Part shown: one piece after another, positions 129-5,118 of the stretch | Position numbering within the stretch: position 1 is the first letter of the stretch | Layout of the letters: each line of letters opens with the position of its first letter | Virus record (IMG/VR): IMGVR_UViG_2548876946_000011 | Span: 1 to 5,118 of that record | Strand: one strand, 5' to 3' | Length of the DNA: 5,118 nt | DNA from: a virus | Taxonomy: Duplodnaviria > Heunggongvirae > Uroviricota > Caudoviricetes | Notes under the pieces: model-generated | Databases searched by the model: none | What the model was told of the DNA's origin: nothing | The model's input: the letters and a program-made list of their open reading frames with translations, nothing else | Made by a program: the position numbers and the translations under genes

Positions 129-565
129 GCAGCCCGATCTCCCCATCGCGCTTTCCACTCCAGAGCCAGTCGCGCTTCGTCTGACCACTTAACGCCATGC
201 TCTGTACCAAATGCCTGTATAAGCTCTAATAGCTCCGCAAATTCGCTTACACGCATCCTGCTGGTTGACTGGCCTATTACCACAAAGCCATTCCCGGCAA
301 GGTTAGGAACAACGTCTTGCTGCTTTAATGCTGCGGTAAACACACACTTCCAGCTTTCTGCATCCAGCCAGCGACCATGCCATTCAACCTGACGAGAGAC
401 GTCACCTAAGCAGGCCCATAGCTTCCTGTTTTGGTCTAAGCTGCGGTTGCGTTCCTGAATGGTTACTACGATTGGTTTGGTTGGGTCTGGAAGGATTTGC
501 TGTACTGCGTGAATAGCGTTTTGCTGATGTGCTGGAGATCGAATTTCAAAGGTCAGTTTTTTCAT
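125..565 (-). CDS. ninB: NinB (Orf-family recombination mediator), 146 aa
   Basis: ORF-track protein from MKKLTFEIRSPAHQQNAIHAVQQILPDPTKPIVVTIQERNRSLDQNRKLWACLGD... matches lambda NinB as I remember it. Start chosen at ATG 565..563 (MKKLTF), preceded on the minus strand by GGGGGAGAGGGAAGTC as Shine-Dalgarno. The track's longer start at 583 (MGEREV) overlaps the upstream terminator T-tract and has no SD. Stop TGA at 127..125. Confidence 0.95.
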   Translation of the reverse strand: MKKLTFEIRSPAHQQNAIHAVQQILPDPTKPIVVTIQERNRSLDQNRKLWACLGDVSRQVEWHGRWLDAESWKCVFTAALKQQDVVPNLAGNGFVVIGQSTSRMRVSEFAELLELIQAFGTEHGVKWSDEARLALEWKARWGDRAA

Positions 566-580
566 GACTTCCCTCTCCCC

Positions 581-613
581 CAAATAAAAAGGCCTGCGAT
601 TACCAGCAGGCCT
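581..613 (-). terminator. Rho-independent terminator (lambda tR2-like) between the helicase gene and ninB
   Basis: On the minus strand, 8-bp GC-rich stem AGGCCTGC (613..606) pairs with GCAGGCCT (597..590) around an 8-nt loop, followed by TTTTTATTTG (589..580), 25 nt after the helicase stop. The ninB RBS follows immediately. Confidence 0.8.
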
Positions 614-638
614 GTTATTAGCTCAGTGATGTAGATGG

Positions 639-2015
639 TCATACGTCAGCCCCTTGTGCATATCGTCTGCCACGTGCAGCGGGTGCATTTGATGCTGTGC
701 AAATCTGTCTGGCTTCATCCTGGTCACATGCAACAAAGTGTCCGTTACAGAACCGCTGGTAAACCGTACCAAGCGAGCCAAAACGGTTTTTCGTCACGAT
801 GATTTCAGCAAATGGCGCGGCGCTACTGTTCTCGTCATATACCGCTTCCCGATAGAGCATGATGATTGAGTCTGCGTCCTGCTCAATGCTTCCTGAATCA
901 CGCAAATCTGCGTTTGTCGGGCGTTTGTTTGGTCGCTTCTCAACATCGCGCGAAAGCTGACTCAGGGAGATAACTGGCGTTTTCAGGTCTTTCGCCATCG
1001 CCTTAAGGCTTCCTGAGATGTGAGCAATTGCGAGGTCGTTGCGGTCTGCTTTCGGCTTCTCAATCAGGCCAAGATAATCCGCCATGATGAGTGAGAGGTT
1101 TGGATTTTCCTGTTTGTGCCGCTCTGCGATTGAGCGAATTTCTTCTACCGATAACCGCGAGGCATCGACTACCCATACATCCAAATCTGCAAGCTGACTC
1201 ATGCCGTTAGCAACACGCGCCCAGCCTTCGTCATCCATCGATGCAGGATTTCGCAGTACGCTAACCGACATCCTCCCGGCGTTGGCAATGCTTCGCTCTG
1301 CAATCTGCAATGCGCTCATTTCCATCGAGAAAATCAACACTCCGCGCCGGACGTCAGAACCAGGAATAACGCGGCTTGCCACGCCTTCGGCAATCTTCAG
1401 CGCCAGTTCGGTTTTCCCCATACCAGGACGAGCGGCGATTATCACCAGATCTTCCGCGTTCATCCCTCCGGTGATGGCATCAAGTTCTTCGATTCCGGTC
1501 TTCAGGGTATCGGACTCTTCTCCGTTCCTCAGACGCCTGTCAAGCGTGTCAGTGTAGTCAGTAATGATTTCCCCTAACCGTACAGGTTTTACCTCGTCAC
1601 GGGGCTTTCTGATGGCTGAAAGACGCTTTACAAGTTCATCCATCGCCTGACTCGATGCGTCGATGGTTCCGCTCTGAATTGGTTCACGCATTTCATCCAT
1701 GATTTCCAGCACCAGACGGCGGTGATAGTTATCCGCGACCATTCCGGCATATCCCTTCAGGTTTGCGGCACTCGGGCAGTTTTTGCTGGTCATCAGGATT
1801 GACGTGAAATGCTCCTCTCCGCACGCCTCGGCAACCATCAGCGCGTCGATTAGGTTTCTGTTTCGCGCCTGCTTGCGGATAACCTCGAAGGCTTTCCGGT
1901 AGAGCGGAATTGAAAACGCTTCCGGCTCCAGCGTTGCCAGAACGTCGCTGGCGGTTGGTGTTAATCCACCAATCAGCAAGCCACCGATAACGCTCGCTTC
2001 GATATCCTGTCTCAT
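639..2015 (-). CDS. Replicative DNA helicase, DnaB family (phage P22 gene 12-like), 458 aa
   Basis: Full-length ORF with Walker A motif [16 protein letters not shown], a RecA-like core ([31 protein letters not shown]) and a DnaB-like N-terminal region. Minus-strand RBS AGGGGGA upstream of ATG 2015..2013. The start overlaps the stop of the upstream O-like gene (ATGA), suggesting translational coupling. Confidence 0.95.
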
Positions 2016-2842
2016 GCAATCCCCCTGTCTGCAAACTTCCCTTCCCGTACTCCAGTTAACGAATCTTCCCTCAGCAGGTAATCAAAATCAGCTGTCCAGC
2101 CCGTGTCGTTGTCTCCGAAGTAAAACGGCTTGGCCTGATGCACAAACGCCCTGACATACGCTCTGAAACCGTCCACGTTTGGCGTTTTCAGTTGCGGGAT
2201 GATTTTCTTCAGGCGGCGTTTGCGTTTCTCGTTGACCGCAACAGCGTGTGGCAGTCTGTCACCGACTTCGGTGTTGTAGGCGTTCAGGAAGGATTCATAG
2301 TCGATTCGTTCTGCCTTGCGACGTTCAGGTTTAACCTGCCCATCGCCGCCCCCGTTAGGGGGTAAGGGGGTATTTGTATTTATTGTCTTTTGTATATTGT
2401 CTTTTGTGTTTGACTGATTCGGTAAATTGCTTTTTACCGATTTGGTGAAGGTTTGTTTTACCGAATTGGTAAATGTTTTACCGAATCCGTTAACTTTCGT
2501 TTTCCACTCGGAAATGTTTGTATTCATACCAACTTGACGCCCCACCTGAATGAGAACTCCCATTCTGATAAGCTCGTTTTTGGCGGTAGAGCATTTGGTT
2601 GGTGCCATGCCAGTGAGTTCAGCGAACTGTTCGTTTCCGATCCAATCTATTTTTTTGTTGTAACCGTATGTCTTGCGCCACACAGCCATAACAATCAGTA
2701 ACTGATGTAGAGTAAGTCCAGAAAGCATGGCGGCTTCTAACAGTGTGTTTGCAGTCCGAGTGTAGCCATCTTCGAGTTCTGCCACGCGATGCTCCACGAC
2801 CTCCAGTTGAGGCCTGTAATCAGCTAACTTAACGACGCCCAT
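2012..2842 (-). CDS. O: Replication initiation protein, lambda O / P22 gene 18-like, 276 aa
   Basis: N-terminal region ...[59 protein letters not shown]...[11 protein letters not shown]...NISEW resembles the lambda O N-terminal iteron-binding domain (remembered LDDGYARLSNMLLEAY...ILRKTYGWNK...ISEW). The gene contains the iteron/AT-rich origin. Strong RBS AGGAGTG upstream of ATG 2842..2840. A Pro/Gly linker ([10 protein letters not shown]) precedes the C-terminal domain, which is expected to recruit the helicase. Confidence 0.9.
2371..2493. other. Candidate phage origin of replication (ori-lambda-like): four iterons plus an adjacent ~40-bp AT-rich region inside the O-like gene
   Basis: Iterons at 2409..2493 are followed, in the direction of O transcription, by the AT-rich segment 2371..2408 (tatttgtatttattgtcttttgtatattgtcttttgtg). 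This is the same order and scale as the lambda origin inside O. Assignment is by architecture only. Confidence 0.75.
2409..2493. repeat. Iteron array, 4 copies of an ~18-bp partially palindromic repeat (consensus about TTTTACCGAATTGGTAAA)
   Basis: Copies at 2409..2426 (tttgactgattcggtaaa), 2432..2449 (ttttaccgatttggtgaa), 2456..2473 (ttttaccgaattggtaaa) and 2476..2493 (ttttaccgaatccgttaa), spaced 23, 24 and 20 bp. Each has TTACC/GGTAA dyad arms. They encode a repeated peptide in the O-like protein ([16 protein letters not shown]). Confidence 0.75.
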
Positions 2843-2990
2843 GTTTCACTCCTGCTTTGGCTAGTCTGTAAACACCAACAAGGCGCTCTGCGAACGCCCT
2901 GTTATTTGCTGCGGCTACCACTAATCCCTCAGGTGAATCAGGGTGTCGAATCTCTTCTTTTTCCTGGTATTTCTTACGACGTTTTGTCAT
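2829..2990 (-). CDS. Hypothetical small basic protein, 53 aa, between cII and the O-like gene
   Basis: Not in the ORF track (below its length cutoff). Minus-strand ATG at 2990..2988 is preceded by AGGAGT with 5-nt spacing. My translation is [53 protein letters not shown], with stop TAA at 2831..2829 overlapping the first codons of the O-like gene. No homology is claimed. Confidence 0.4.
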   Translation of the reverse strand: MTKRRKKYQEKEEIRHPDSPEGLVVAAANNRAFAERLVGVYRLAKAGVKHGRR

Positions 2991-2999
2991 AATTACTCC

Positions 3000-3079
3000 T
3001 GTGGATTGATCCAGTAATTCCCTCAGAATTGCATATCAATTTGCTTAAAATCCTCGGTGGCGGCCGGGGATTTTTTCTT
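3000..3079 (+). ncRNA. Candidate OOP-like antisense RNA (about 80 nt), antisense to the 3' end of cII
   Basis: Plus-strand extended -10 motif TGtCATAAT (2985..2993) gives a predicted start near 3000. A strong intrinsic terminator at 3046..3079 lies inside the cII 3' coding region on the opposite strand. Position and size mirror lambda OOP RNA. Inference only. Confidence 0.35.
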
Positions 3080-3319
3080 TGTGATTTCATCAAGCGCATA
3101 CTTAAAAGCCCTGCTAATCGGACTGATGTCTGATGCCATTCCGAAAGCACACAAGACCGAAGCAATAAATCTCCAGTCCGTTCTGCTTATCTTCGATTCA
3201 TGACAGCCAATCATCTTTGCCAGACCGCGCTGGGTAAGCGTTGACAGGTTGATGAGTAAATCTGTTTCTGCGCGATCAATTTCTCGCTGTGTTGGCTTGC
3301 TGTAACTTGCTTGTGTCAT
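3023..3319 (-). CDS. cII: CII-type transcriptional activator (lysogeny establishment), 98 aa
   Basis: ORF-track protein ends ...DEITKKKSPAATEDFKQIDMQF, resembling the lambda CII C-terminus (...NKKRPAATERSEQIQMEF as recalled), with a central HTH-like segment (LAKMIGCHESKISR). It sits between cro and O as in lambdoid phages. A TTGC-N6-TTGC motif lies antisense within its 5' end. Confidence 0.88.
   Translation of the reverse strand: MTQASYSKPTQREIDRAETDLLINLSTLTQRGLAKMIGCHESKISRTDWRFIASVLCAFGMASDISPISRAFKYALDEITKKKSPAATEDFKQIDMQF
3046..3079 (+). terminator. Rho-independent terminator on the plus strand inside the cII 3' end (candidate OOP terminator)
   Basis: Stem 3049..3056 (atcctcgg) pairs with 3063..3070 (ccggggat): 8 bp including one G-U. 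Loop is tggcgg, followed by TTTTTTCTTT (3070..3079). A-T extensions on both flanks (3046..3048 / 3071..3073) could allow some bidirectional function. Confidence 0.65.
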
Positions 3320-3329
3320 TTCTTAATAT
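3297..3329 (+). promoter_or_regulatory. Candidate pRE-like CII-activated promoter (TTGC-N6-TTGC plus -10)
   Basis: TTGC (3297..3300), spacer tgtaac, TTGC (3307..3310), then 13 nt and TAATAT (3324..3329). It lies antisense in the first codons of cII and points toward cro (antisense) and cI. The geometry matches lambda pRE as I recall it. Confidence 0.6.
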
Positions 3330-3404
3330 TTCCAATAGTGAATAGTTAGTTGAAAGGTATGCGTGGAAACGCATATGGCCTTAGTTGGTCAGATATATTG
3401 GGAC

Positions 3405-3450
3405 TCGCTTTTCAGCGACGTAGGACGAATGTCCGTTGTTACAAAGAGCG
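3405..3450 (-). promoter_or_regulatory. Candidate nutR (boxA plus boxB-like hairpin) just downstream of cro
   Basis: Minus-strand boxA CGCTCTTT (plus 3450..3443) begins 12 nt after the cro stop. Then gtaacaac, a small hairpin GGACattcGTCC, tacg, and the boxB-like hairpin TCGCtgaaaaGCGA (plus 3418..3405). The same boxA-aacaac-hairpin-tacg-boxB layout recurs at the candidate nutL. Confidence 0.55.
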
Positions 3451-3460
3451 GACCCGCTTA

Positions 3461-3676
3461 TTAAGCAGCTTTGTGTTCCGGCGGGAACACGTCATCAAGA
3501 CTGACTTTTGCGCCTAACTTGTTTAGGCACTCAACAAGAGCACGGCATGTTTTAAGGTCTGGGAAGCGACGACCAGATTCCCAATGTCCGATAGCTCCCT
3601 GTGTGCATCCAACTGCCTTAGCAAGTGTTGTTTGAGAGATATTCAGTGACTCTCGATATTTTCGTAGGTTGCTCAT
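3461..3676 (-). CDS. cro: Cro-type HTH repressor, 71 aa
   Basis: Small HTH protein MSNLRKYRESLNISQTTLAKAVGCTQGAIGHWESGRRFPDLKTCRALVECLNKLG... divergent from cI, with a recognition helix very similar to that of the cI here (TQGAIGHW vs TQGGIGHW). Start at ATG 3676..3674 has an upstream GGAGGG. The track's longer start at 3703 lacks an SD and lies upstream of the predicted pR start. Confidence 0.85.
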   Translation of the reverse strand: MSNLRKYRESLNISQTTLAKAVGCTQGAIGHWESGRRFPDLKTCRALVECLNKLGAKVSLDDVFPPEHKAA

Positions 3677-3702
3677 ATGCCCTCCATAGTAACCATAACA
3701 CA

Positions 3703-3731
3703 ATAATACGATATGTACTTTTAGAATGCAA
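3703..3731 (-). promoter_or_regulatory. Candidate pR promoter driving cro
   Basis: Minus strand: -35 TTGCAT (plus 3731..3726), 17-nt spacer, -10 TATTAT (plus 3708..3703). The spacer (tctaaaagtacatatcg) is nearly identical to the pL spacer (cagtaaagtacacatcg). Confidence 0.65.
3705..3719. promoter_or_regulatory. Candidate operator (OR1-like) overlapping the pR spacer and -10
   Basis: Minus-strand sequence AGTACatatcGTATT, half-site pattern AGTAC-N5-GTAyT. Same motif and same position relative to the promoter as the pL site at 4586..4600. Confidence 0.5.
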
Positions 3732-3764
3732 ACAAAAAATACATCTTGTGCATGGATGATTTTA

Positions 3765-3779
3765 GTACAGAGCGTAATA
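3765..3779. promoter_or_regulatory. Candidate operator (OR3-like) next to the cI start, overlapping a possible pRM -10
   Basis: Plus strand AGTACagagcGTAAT fits AGTAC-N5-GTAnT. A weaker possible middle site AATACatcttGTGCA lies at 3738..3752. A possible pRM -10 TAATAA at 3775..3780 would put the start near ATG 3788. Confidence 0.4.
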
Positions 3780-3787
3780 ATAAGGGT

Positions 3788-4447
3788 ATGAAAATGAAAT
3801 GGTATGAACTGGCTAGATCCAGAATGAAAGAGCTAGGCATAACTCAAGAGAAGTTAGCTGAAGAGCTTGGTATGACGCAGGGTGGAATTGGTCACTGGTT
3901 GCGCGGATCTCGTCATCCATCTCTTGACGAGATTGGTGTGGTGTTTAAATACCTTGGTATTGATAACGTCTCATTCAACCACGACGGTACATTTTCACCT
4001 GTTGGCGAATACTCATCTGCCCCCGTTAAAAAACAATATGAGTACCCTGTTTTTTCTCATGTTCAGGCCGGGATGTTCTCGCCTGAGCTTAGAACCTTTA
4101 CCAAAGGTGATGCGGAGAGATGGGTCAGCACAACCAAAAAAGCCAGTGATTGTGCGTTTTGGCTTGAAGTTGAAGGTAATTCCATGACCGCGCCAACAGG
4201 ATCCAAGCCAAGCTTTCCTGACGGGATGTTAATTCTCGTTGACCCTGAGCAGGCTGTTGAGCCAGGTGATTTCTGCATAGCCAGACTTGGTGGTGACGAG
4301 TTTACCTTCAAGAAACTGATCAGGGATAGCGGTCAGGTGTTCCTACAACCACTAAATCCGCAATATCCAATGATTCCATGCAATGATAGCTGTTCCGTAG
4401 TAGGGAAAGTTATCGCCAGCCAGTGGCCTGAAGAGACATTTAGTTAA
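3788..4447 (+). CDS. cI: CI-type prophage repressor (HTH N-domain plus LexA/S24-like autocleavage C-domain)
   Basis: C-terminal portion [52 protein letters not shown]...[15 protein letters not shown] is almost identical to the lambda cI C-terminal domain as I remember it, including the Ser (GNSMTAP) and Lys (FKKLI) catalytic context. The N-terminal HTH ([23 protein letters not shown]) is unlike lambda. Start is uncertain: the longest ORF begins at 3746, but 3788 (MKMKW) or 3794 keeps the candidate operators in the intergenic region. AAGGG lies 7 nt before the 3794 ATG. Confidence 0.93.
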
Positions 4448-4477
4448 CAGCCTCACCACTCTAAAACACACAACAAT

Positions 4478-4507
4478 AACCCGACCTTAGCGTCGGGTTT
4501 TCTTTTT
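4478..4507 (+). terminator. Rho-independent terminator immediately downstream of cI
   Basis: Stem aacccgac (4478..4485) pairs with gtcgggtt (4492..4499), 6-nt loop cttagc, T-tract ttttcttttt (4498..4507). It begins 31 nt after the cI stop. Confidence 0.8.
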
Positions 4508-4573
4508 CCAAAATATAAATCAATAAAATACAAAGTGTTATAAAAAACTAAACCATATTTAGAACATTTTGTA

Positions 4574-4602
4574 TTGACTCAGTAAAGTACACATCGTACT
4601 AT
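4574..4602 (+). promoter_or_regulatory. Candidate pL promoter with embedded operator (OL1-like, 4586..4600)
   Basis: -35 TTGACT (4574..4579), 17-nt spacer, -10 TACTAT (4597..4602). A near-perfect inverted repeat AGTACacatcGTACT (4586..4600) spans the spacer and -10. A weaker site AGAACattttGTATT (4561..4575) is centred 25 bp upstream and overlaps the -35. Confidence 0.7.
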
Positions 4603-4647
4603 TTAGCCATCAGCAGGAAGCTGGAAGCCAAACGGAACAGACTGGCA

Positions 4648-4694
4648 TGCTCTTTAAACAACGTCGAGCACTCGACTACGTGGCTGAAAAGCCA
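4648..4694 (+). promoter_or_regulatory. Candidate nutL (boxA plus boxB-like hairpin) in the pL leader
   Basis: boxA-like TGCTCTTTAA (4648..4657), then acaac, hairpin GTCGAgcacTCGAC (4663..4676), tacg, and boxB-like TGGCtgaaaaGCCA (4681..4694). Architecture parallels the candidate nutR. Confidence 0.55.
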
Positions 4695-4792
4695 GATCAC
4701 CCAACCACATGAGCTGTGGGATGCAATGCCGAAGCAACCGTCTCAGGAAGAGCTTCGAGATTGCATCACCAAAGTTTATTCGGGAGGAATCT

Positions 4793-5065
4793 ATGTCCAG
4801 AAAAACAGAATTTAAAGGCACCTCAGCTTCTCGTCGTAGAGCTCGTCGCGCAAACCTGCAAAGTCAGGAGGCGATTAGCTCCGACAAGCTACACAGACCA
4901 ACCCCCTCACGAGTGGTCTTGCAATGTAAGCGCAAACCAGCAATGAGAGCAGAAGTAATAACACTGACAACGCTGACCAGAAAATATGAAGGCTCAACTT
5001 GTCTTCCAAACGTAGCTCTTTACGCGGCAGGCTACCGGAAATCCAAACAACTGACAGCAAGATGA
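4793..5065 (+). CDS. N: N-type transcription antitermination protein, 90 aa
   Basis: N-terminal arginine-rich motif MSRKTEFKGTSASRRRARRANLQSQEA is typical of lambdoid N proteins (remembered lambda MDAQTRRRERRAEKQAQW). The gene lies downstream of the pL-like promoter and nutL-like site. Start at ATG 4793 has SD GGGAGGA 5 nt upstream. The track's upstream start at 4709 has no SD. Confidence 0.8.
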   Translation: MSRKTEFKGTSASRRRARRANLQSQEAISSDKLHRPTPSRVVLQCKRKPAMRAEVITLTTLTRKYEGSTCLPNVALYAAGYRKSKQLTAR

Positions 5066-5118
5066 CTTGTGTTGGTCGCCAGAAAATGAAATTAGGCAGC
5101 AAACCACTTATTTGAGGT

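Follow-up and report, generated by a model that had tools for sequence, protein, structure and literature searches.

That repressors of the VT2-Sakai type share only a split homology with lambda cI has been known since 2000. PMC10742460 cites Fattah et al. (2000, Genes Genet Syst 75:223) for a homology between VT2-Sa cI and lambda cI that is high in the C-terminal part and low in the N-terminal part, and credits the same work with the observation of cross-immunity between lambda and VT2-Sa; PMC10742460 explicitly leaves the hetero-cooperativity of lambda CI and VT2-Sa CI as an open question. PMC8951638 groups CI of the VT2-Sakai type (Eru2/Eru3 Stx phages) with lambda CI in its 'Clade I', the two being 61% identical overall, and reports S150, the autocleavage residue of lambda cI, as conserved across the Stx-phage CI clades. 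For the repressor of epsilon34, PMC2629481 reports a C-terminal protease domain that is about 80% identical to those of lambda and HK97, and an N-terminal part that is only about 50% identical to those of L, VT2-Sa, and Nil2. In the passages on Nil2 of PMC2903704 and PMC3349717, we found no statement on cI chimerism.

Here we analyze the cI gene of a 5118-bp stretch of DNA (hereafter the window), which the initial annotation had described as a chimera of a non-lambda DNA-binding domain and a near-lambda C-terminal domain. The gene is an ordinary repressor of the common VT2-Sakai/Nil2 immunity type found in E. coli prophages. Its product (window 3788-4447) is very probably the maintenance repressor of such a prophage, carrying an old and recurrent joint in its hinge that did not arise from an event between this phage and lambda.

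Organization of the cI gene and its control regions

Based on the list of open reading frames, Pfam matches, and promoter and terminator scans, the window covers the part of a lambdoid phage or prophage that serves early regulation and replication (Table 1). A search of the whole 5118 bp against Rfam, using the gathering thresholds, returned no family. The cI product has 219 residues when read from ATG 3788 and 217 residues when read from the alternative ATG 3794. Both starts are used in databases, the equivalent of 3788 in the RefSeq record of phage 2851 and that of 3794 in 720R6; from our reading of the sequence, the AAGGG at 3782-3786 has a good ribosome-binding-site spacing for ATG 3794 only.

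The protein consists of an HTH_3 domain (residues 9-56, E 8e-11) followed by a Peptidase_S24 domain (residues 85-207, covering the whole profile, E 9e-29), an order that places it among the self-cleaving S24 repressors of the LexA/cI type. With phmmer, its best match in the PDB is lambda repressor 3bdn (E 2e-96), and the further matches 8gmu, 2ho0, 1f39, and 1kca are constructs of the lambda cI C-terminal domain. The Ala-Gly scissile bond and the Ser/Lys dyad expected of S24 repressors are both found, inside a stretch that is 98% identical to lambda cI. The proposal that the C-terminal module retains the lambda functions of oligomerization and cleavage agrees with these observations: the cleavage site, the dyad, and the oligomerization surface of lambda are kept almost unaltered. 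The lambda cleavage bond, Ala112-Gly113 when Met is counted, is commonly given as Ala111-Gly112, in the numbering of the mature protein. Similarly, lambda Lys193 appears as K192 in the names of PDB entries (2ho0, 'cI101-229DM-K192A'). We asked whether an alternative-frame ORF inside cI (3882-4187, 'ORF b65' in AP005153) might be an overlapping gene of the Hex kind, and judged it spurious because its stop differs, lying at 4187 in the window and at the equivalent of 4127 in AP005153.

Table 1 Features identified in the window, with their coordinates and the evidence used.
Feature	Position	Strand	Sequence or residues	Evidence and remarks
ninB	125-571	minus		
DnaB-type helicase	639-2015	minus		
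O-type initiator	2012-2842	minus		
cII	3023-3319	minus		
Whole immunity module (cro, OR, cI, terminator, OL/PL)	3461..4621			98.2% to 720R6 and Dewey
cro-type lytic repressor	3461-3676	minus	71 aa, HTH_3	Pfam; co-inherited with cI N-terminal domain and operators
Putative operator nearest cro, OR1-like	3705..3721		TAATACGATATGTACTT	overlaps rightward promoter -10
Putative middle operator, OR2-like	3737..3753		AAATACATCTTGTGCAT	
Putative operator nearest cI, OR3-like	3764..3780		TAGTACAGAGCGTAATA	overlaps presumed PRM -10 (TAATAA)
cI repressor gene	3788..4447	plus	stop TAA 4445-4447	HTH_3 and Peptidase_S24
N-terminal HTH DNA-binding domain and first part of hinge (specificity module, non-lambda type)	3788..4036	plus		
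Identity breakpoint, 4036/4037	4034..4039	plus	Gln-Tyr codons before EYPVF	alignment; start of blastn HSP
Lambda-type C-terminal module (cleavage-site region, S24 autoprotease core, dimer/tetramer surface)	4037..4444	plus		
Predicted self-cleavage bond	4067..4072	plus	Ala92-Gly93 (GCC GGG)	aligned with lambda Ala112-Gly113 counting Met
Ser130	4181..4183	plus	TCC in GNSM	alignment; lambda nucleophile Ser150 counting Met
Lys173	4310..4312	plus	AAG in TFKKL	lambda general base Lys193 counting Met
Intrinsic terminator downstream of cI	4478..4507	plus		terminator scan; lambda has rexA-rexB, then a terminator, there
Putative OL3-like operator	4526..4542		AAATACAAAGTGTTATA	pattern match; one arm of inverted repeat I1
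Putative OL2-like operator	4560..4576		reverse complement CAATACAAAATGTTCTA	overlaps PL -35
PL-like promoter	4574-4579 and 4597-4602		TTGACT, 17-bp spacer, TACTAT	promoter scan
Putative OL1-like operator	4585..4601		AAGTACACATCGTACTA	matched on both strands; overlaps PL -10
N antiterminator	4793-5065	plus		

The pattern ARTACNNNNNGT gives eight matches in the window, corresponding to six sites, two of which are palindromic, and all of them are located in the two control regions; 0.67 matches are expected by chance, and none of 200 shuffled sequences reached eight. Like the OL1-like site, the OR1-like site is matched on both strands. The three OR sites are homologous to operators annotated as 'putative' in AP005153, with 1-3 substitutions per site, and the presumed PRM was assigned after the annotation of that same record. 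An exact-seed search for repeats in the OR region found nothing, the operators being too degenerate for such seeds. The centre-to-centre spacings are 32 and 27 bp in OR and 25 and 34 bp in OL, compared with 24/23 and 24/20 bp in lambda; because these spacings differ despite the same cooperativity module, a lambda-like pairwise cooperativity is an assumption here. The operator consensus of the epsilon34 repressor, WTACRAWWTGTAT, is similar to that of the window, and its operator specificity was predicted to be different (PMC2629481). Downstream of cI, positions 4470-4505 align at 89% identity with lambda DNA that includes the rexB stop codon and the bases immediately after it.

Based on its sequence, the switch is intact, with cI, cro, 3 + 3 putative operators, the cleavage site, and the catalytic dyad. 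We propose that the N-terminal HTH_3 domain (3788-4036) recognizes six pseudo-palindromic operators, each of 17 bp with the pattern A-R-TAC-N5-GT. Three of them lie in the cI-cro intergenic region and the other three at PL, and binding of the dimer would repress PR and PL. Dimerization and pairwise cooperativity would come from the C-terminal module (217-aa numbering, residues 82-217). From its 98% identity to the lambda module, we expect that RecA stimulates self-cleavage at Ala92-Gly93 by Ser130/Lys173 upon SOS, and a cleavage module this close to lambda's suggests that the prophage would be SOS-inducible in the lambda manner.

A step in identity to lambda cI at the hinge

The initial annotation predicted a breakpoint in identity near 4030..4060, and the alignment with lambda cI located it at 4036/4037. 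With blastn against lambda (J02459), similarity within cI is confined to window 4037-4441 (93.6%, 26 mismatches in 405 nt, no gaps). In a codon-guided alignment, 95 of 243 nucleotides (39%) are identical before 4037 and 380 of 408 (93.1%) from 4037 to the stop (Fisher's exact test, p = 1e-51). The protein shows the same change, from 17/81 identical residues (21%) upstream to 133/136 (98%) downstream, so that the C-terminal part is indeed near-lambda; only C120, D198, and S217 differ, where lambda has S140, E218, and G237, respectively (Met counted in both proteins). The step falls within one codon and shows no gradient (KKQ/YEYPVF in the window and RSE/YEYPVF in lambda), the first 32 nt downstream of the junction are identical to lambda, and a two-rate likelihood split was placed at window residue 82. 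The divergence is thus not uniform and moderate along the protein, a pattern that would have spoken against a junction. Counting Met, the junction corresponds to lambda Tyr102, which precedes the Ala-Gly cleavage site by about 10 residues and is past the folded N-terminal domain of lambda cI (about residues 1-92).

Less of the original claim holds for the N-terminal part, which had been described as some 95 residues unrelated to lambda cI. It is divergent, at 21% amino acid identity, but extends over 83 residues from 3788 or 81 from 3794, and it has an HTH_3 homologue in lambda. The N-terminal domains of both repressors match Pfam HTH_3, phmmer aligns them from lambda repressor residue 24 onward, and the two N-terminal halves are of unequal length and require several gaps to be aligned. 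Judged by profile and alignment, the N-terminal domain is a distant homologue of that of lambda, with no detectable similarity at the DNA level.

A step of this kind could be produced without recombination if the window cI and lambda cI had a single history and the C-terminal half evolved more slowly under protein constraint. The C-terminal domains of cI/LexA-type repressors are generally more conserved than their DNA-binding domains, and the shared half has a dN of only 0.009. However, synonymous sites change at the same place, from a saturated pS of 0.81 before the junction to a dS of 0.36 after it, and therefore a stronger constraint on the C-terminal protein is not the cause of the step. 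Constraint also fits poorly with a change that occupies one codon and lacks a gradient, with N-terminal halves that differ in length and take several gaps to align, with relatives of the N-terminal domain (41-50% identical) whose C-terminal domain is lambda-type (80%) in some and P22-c2-type (41-45%) in others, and with pairs of repressors from different N-terminal families whose C-terminal modules are 100% identical. We consider an explanation by constraint extremely improbable. The proposed recombination junction inside cI is borne out by a sharp joint at the inter-domain hinge that includes the synonymous sites. We regard the step at 4036/4037 as the product of genuine recombination in the flexible hinge, immediately before the region of the cleavage site, and this position would allow the substrate loop, the protease, and the oligomerization surface to move as one module.

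The age of the joint is a separate matter. This phage and lambda, or another phage of lambda immunity, could have crossed over recently and in this lineage alone, making a new hybrid repressor. Such an event would agree with the 98% amino acid identity of the C-terminal half to lambda and with the flanks of the immunity module. Similarity to HK97 is 97.8% over window 2766-3451, ends at 3451, and returns only as the island 4037-4447, at 94.2%; similarity to lambda ren/ninB extends over window 210-642 at 98.8%. These flanks indicate that lambda-immunity phages do recombine with this lineage. Nevertheless, the island differs from every lambda-immunity allele by 26-28 positions in about 405 nt (93-94%), in contrast with 97-99% in the flanks, and among the lambda-immunity cI genes of the phage collection, none has a C-terminal half with a nucleotide identity to 4037-4447 above 99%, the best being 94.3%. 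Moreover, the same cI architecture is found, at 92-99% full-length identity, in 62 phage records, 768 of the 5426 complete E. coli genomes examined carry the immunity module (with an identity of 100% in NZ_CP148579), and collinear relatives exist in Citrobacter and other genera. The prevalence among complete genomes is that of a common, well-sampled repressor, and a recent crossover is, in our estimation, highly unlikely. Because isolated phages and hundreds of complete genomes contain the same gene, we also rejected an assembly artefact or a chimeric contig. The description as a chimera of lambda is therefore right about the joint, which is real, but not about its origin: the gene is not lambda-derived within this phage, its shared half being 7% different in nucleotides with a dS of 0.36.

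Recurrence of the joint and exchange within the C-terminal module

The C-terminal module was searched against 5.8 billion proteins, and 116 proteins were analyzed, comprising 111 full-length matches and 5 reference cI proteins. This survey across N-terminal families was done at the protein level with representatives of 90%-identity clusters, and the independence of pairs was judged by their distinct C-terminal alleles. In enterobacterial prophages, the lambda-type C-terminal module occurs on at least five N-terminal families with a distant relationship or none between them, namely the window type, the lambda type, an HTH_19 type (Lambdavirus PDP110P1), and two others. Many cross-family pairs among the 116 proteins have C-terminal identities of 95-100% and N-terminal identities of 12-32%, and in some of them the C-terminal modules are 100% identical. 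The best two-rate breakpoint lies at window residues 81-84, within the motif [YF]-x-Y-P-[VL]-F, in 15 of the 16 pairs examined, and in at least 12 cross-family pairs the change of identity lies no more than about two residues from this same hinge motif. The exception is PDP110P1 compared with lambda, for which the best breakpoint is inside the C-terminal module, at about residue 121. For 81 of the 116 proteins, the nearest C-terminal neighbor belongs to another N-terminal family, and C-terminal alleles of several levels of divergence are each common to different N-terminal families at 98-100%.

Could a single ancient fusion of the two domains, followed by vertical descent only, account for these repressors? 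In favor of such a history, identity to the window in the N-terminal part roughly follows that in the C-terminal part within the window-type subfamily (85/84, 80/83, 71/64, and 69/60%), and N- and C-terminal identities within families are correlated (Pearson 0.52-0.82). Descent without continuing exchange of the C-terminal half is nonetheless contradicted by the alleles shared across N-terminal families at 98-100% and by the extra junction of PDP110P1. It also conflicts with the comparison between the window cI and the Stx1-phage cI, whose N-terminal parts differ less at synonymous sites (dS 0.19) than their C-terminal parts do (dS 0.48; Fisher p 0.014). In its C-terminal part, the window allele lies nearer to that of HK97 (dS 0.29), and to that of lambda (0.36), than to the Stx-phage allele of its own immunity group (0.48). 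Finally, in a four-gamete test of the C-terminal module with eight alleles, 48 of 91 informative site pairs were incompatible, which indicates that alleles of lambda-immunity and VT2-Sa-immunity phages recombine with each other. A single fusion without later exchange therefore appears very improbable, and we retain the old, recurrent joint described above.

The co-varying identities do indicate that the combination of domains is old, and labeling this gene rather than lambda cI as the 'chimera' is consequently arbitrary. Because the N- and C-terminal identities track each other in relatives, a non-lambda domain grafted onto lambda is no better justified than the reverse. A comparison of the lambda/window allele with the consensuses of the window-type and lambda-type families gave no polarity to the exchange (0 vs 3 diagnostic C-terminal sites), and this allele carries about 17 states that are missing from the majority of each N-terminal family. 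Modular exchange of specificity, as suggested in the initial annotation, remains the best explanation, with the same junction in at least 12 independent cross-family pairs.

The DNA-binding domain, cro, and the operators would constitute a second module, moving together. OL lies beyond the shared module, and a single crossover in the hinge would thus part the N-terminal domain from OL. As to the mechanism, the shared island would be more readily accounted for if C-terminal segments were replaced in patches by homologous exchange (gene conversion) between heteroimmune genomes, or if double exchanges took place. Finding this hinge joint in many N-terminal families modestly extends what was known and fits the established mosaicism of lambdoid phages, of which this gene is a clean textbook case with the joint at a protein-domain boundary.

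A more speculative idea, which we hold to be rather doubtful, is that the cleavage and oligomerization module is actively homogenized among heteroimmune prophages through this same hinge junction, permitting mixed oligomers or synchronized induction. If so, co-resident repressors of the lambda and VT2-Sakai types would carry near-identical dimer/tetramer interfaces and cleavage kinetics, and polylysogens might show mixed dimers or hetero-cooperative binding and a synchronized SOS induction. Homogenization of the module might then also underlie the cross-immunity between lambda and VT2-Sa attributed to Fattah et al. in the citing paper. The present gene is relevant to whether repressors of different immunity that share an identical C-terminal module interact in polylysogens.

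Immunity type and comparison with known phages

Over its full length, the cI gene is 99.3% identical in nucleotides to that of vB_EcoP-720R6, and its closest allele group (98.6-99.3%) consists of the non-Stx phages 720R6, 683R2, Dewey, Louie, and phi458. It is 92.3% identical to cI of VT2-Sakai, Nil2, the Stx1-converting phage AP005153, 1717, 2851, YYZ-2008, the PA series, and others. Window 2981-4447 is similar to AP005153 without a break, at 94.1%. In a mosaic map of the immunity module (3461-4621), the island 4037-4447 is the sole part in common with lambda-immunity phages. The N-terminal domain belongs to the VT2-Sakai/Nil2 group, with 78 of 81 residues identical to the Stx1-phage cI and the three changes (D/S, E/D, and V/I) all outside the recognition-helix region, and cro and the operators are homologous as well. 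In contrast, the locus does not belong to the imm-lambda group, as its N-terminal domain is 21% identical to that of lambda without nucleotide similarity, its cro is of the HTH_3 type, and its operators differ in sequence and spacing. Homoimmunity with the VT2-Sa type is a prediction, and the operator substitutions relative to that type could in principle shift the specificity. At the level of the window, the value of these findings is small, since they name the immunity type of a common lambdoid prophage; their wider relevance is that this type of cI controls the induction of Shiga-toxin prophages.

Among described systems, cI of VT2-Sakai (Sp5), Nil2, AP005153, 1717, 2851, YYZ-2008, and relatives has the architecture, length, HTH recognition region, and junction to lambda cI of the window cI. 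The Stx-phage and window proteins are 96% identical in the N-terminal domain and 97% in the C-terminal module; in nucleotides the N-terminal part is the closer one (94.7%, dS 0.19), whereas the C-terminal part is at 91.2% (dS 0.48). The Stx phages possess extra ORFs downstream of cI that are absent from the window. Lambda cI, like the full-length lambda-type cI of HK97, HK106, HK542, SfI, ev243, and PhiR5_2, is shared from Tyr82 onward (98% amino acid and 93-94% nucleotide identity). The plan of the switch is that of lambda, with cI and cro diverging from each other and three sites each in OR and OL, but the window lacks rexA/rexB, its operators have the ARTAC-N5-GT form instead of lambda's, and its cro is of the HTH_3 type.

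Other relatives combine the same N-terminal family with more distant C-terminal domains. In Salmonella phages epsilon34, g341c, and vB_SosS_Oslo, cI has 217 residues, an N-terminal domain of the window family (49% amino acid identity), and a lambda-type C-terminal module (80%); this epsilon34 type is far more diverged. The repressors of phage L/ST64T (c2), Erwinia Midgardsormr38, Vibrio H20, and Klebsiella phi10.1 also have an N-terminal domain of this family (41-50%) in an HTH + S24 arrangement, but their C-terminal domain is P22-c2-like and 41-45% identical to that of the window. With these two partners, lambda-type and P22-c2-type, the N-terminal family of the window repressor thus occurs with two C-terminal lineages.

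Boundaries of the mosaic segments

We compared the window with related phage genomes and found that the boundaries between its mosaic segments are sharp. The segment at 210-642 matches ren/ninB of lambda (98.8% identity), the segment at 2766-3451, which runs from the start of O across cII to where cro ends, matches HK97 (97.8%), and the segment at 3461-4621 matches 720R6 and Dewey (98.2%), two of the non-Stx phages that carry the closest group of cI alleles. One joint lies at the stop of cro (3452-3460), the other shortly past the transcription start of PL, the promoter on the N side (about 4621).

A joint at another position is found in the cI of Lambdavirus PDP110P1 (OZ035751, at about 970-1608). 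This repressor carries a third type of N-terminal region, HTH_19-like, and its identity with lambda cI begins only at about the equivalent of window residue 121; it thus contains a second junction, one that lies within the C-terminal module and not at the hinge.

Start codon of cI and an overlapping reading frame

The start of cI is annotated inconsistently in public records, the equivalents of 3752, 3788 and 3794 all being in use. Since position 3752 falls inside the OR2/OR3-PRM region, which includes the promoter for cI itself, the longest form is unlikely to be produced from the PRM transcript.

An alternative-frame ORF within cI was also considered as a gene, which it probably is not, because its stop lies at 4187 in the window and at the equivalent of 4127 in AP005153, a Stx1-converting phage.

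Features of the cI-N region (window coordinates)
Feature	Position	Strand	Remarks
cI start	3752 (equivalent)		231-232 aa; AP005153, Dewey, database cluster of 1686 sequences
cI start	3788 (equivalent)		RefSeq phage 2851
cI start	3794 (equivalent)		720R6
Alternative-frame ORF within cI, 101 codons	3882-4187	+	"ORF b65" in AP005153; spans the domain junction
Intrinsic terminator	4478-4507		directly after cI stop
boxA-like sequence GCTCTTTAA	about 4649-4657		N leader (4647-4780)
boxB-like hairpin GTCGA-GCAC-TCGAC	4663-4676		N leader, 3' of boxA-like sequence
Long hairpin, 16-nt arms	4720-4735 / 4752-4767		directly 5' of N ribosome-binding site
N ORF, 90 aa	4793-5065	+	stop TGA 5063-5065

Leader and 3' end of N

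The N leader folds better than shuffled sequences (z = -3.6), and its long hairpin is reminiscent of the RNase III-sensitive structure in the lambda N leader.

At the other end of the gene (5050-5118), a 17-codon ORF in the -1 frame, encoding MTCVGRQKMKLGSKPLI followed by a stop, overlaps the N stop as ATGA. The encoded peptide is the tail with which lambda-type N proteins end at the C-terminus and through which lambda N binds RNA polymerase. Dewey N contains it in frame, whereas it is out of frame (-1) in the window; the same out-of-frame arrangement is present in Stx phage 2851, which matches the window without mismatch from 5038 to the window's end. This out-of-frame tail may have been left behind by recombination with a joint inside N, or it could be translated separately or fused to N by frameshifting.

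Surroundings of cI compared with other lambdoid phages

Downstream of cI (4448-4621), rexA and rexB are absent. Window 4470-4505 shares 89% identity with lambda 35799-35834, a stretch that takes in the stop codon of rexB and the sequence immediately 3' of it. In lambda and SfI, rexAB lies between cI and the terminator, whereas HK97, HK106, HK542 and Stx phages carry other ORFs at this position; the cargo is variable, and the terminator itself appears to be conserved.

The candidate operators are spaced, centre to centre, by 32 and 27 bp at OR (3705-3780) and by 25 and 34 bp at OL (4526-4601), unlike those of lambda (24/23 at OR and 24/20 at OL). Despite these different spacings, the cooperative-binding module of the repressor is 98% identical between the window and lambda.
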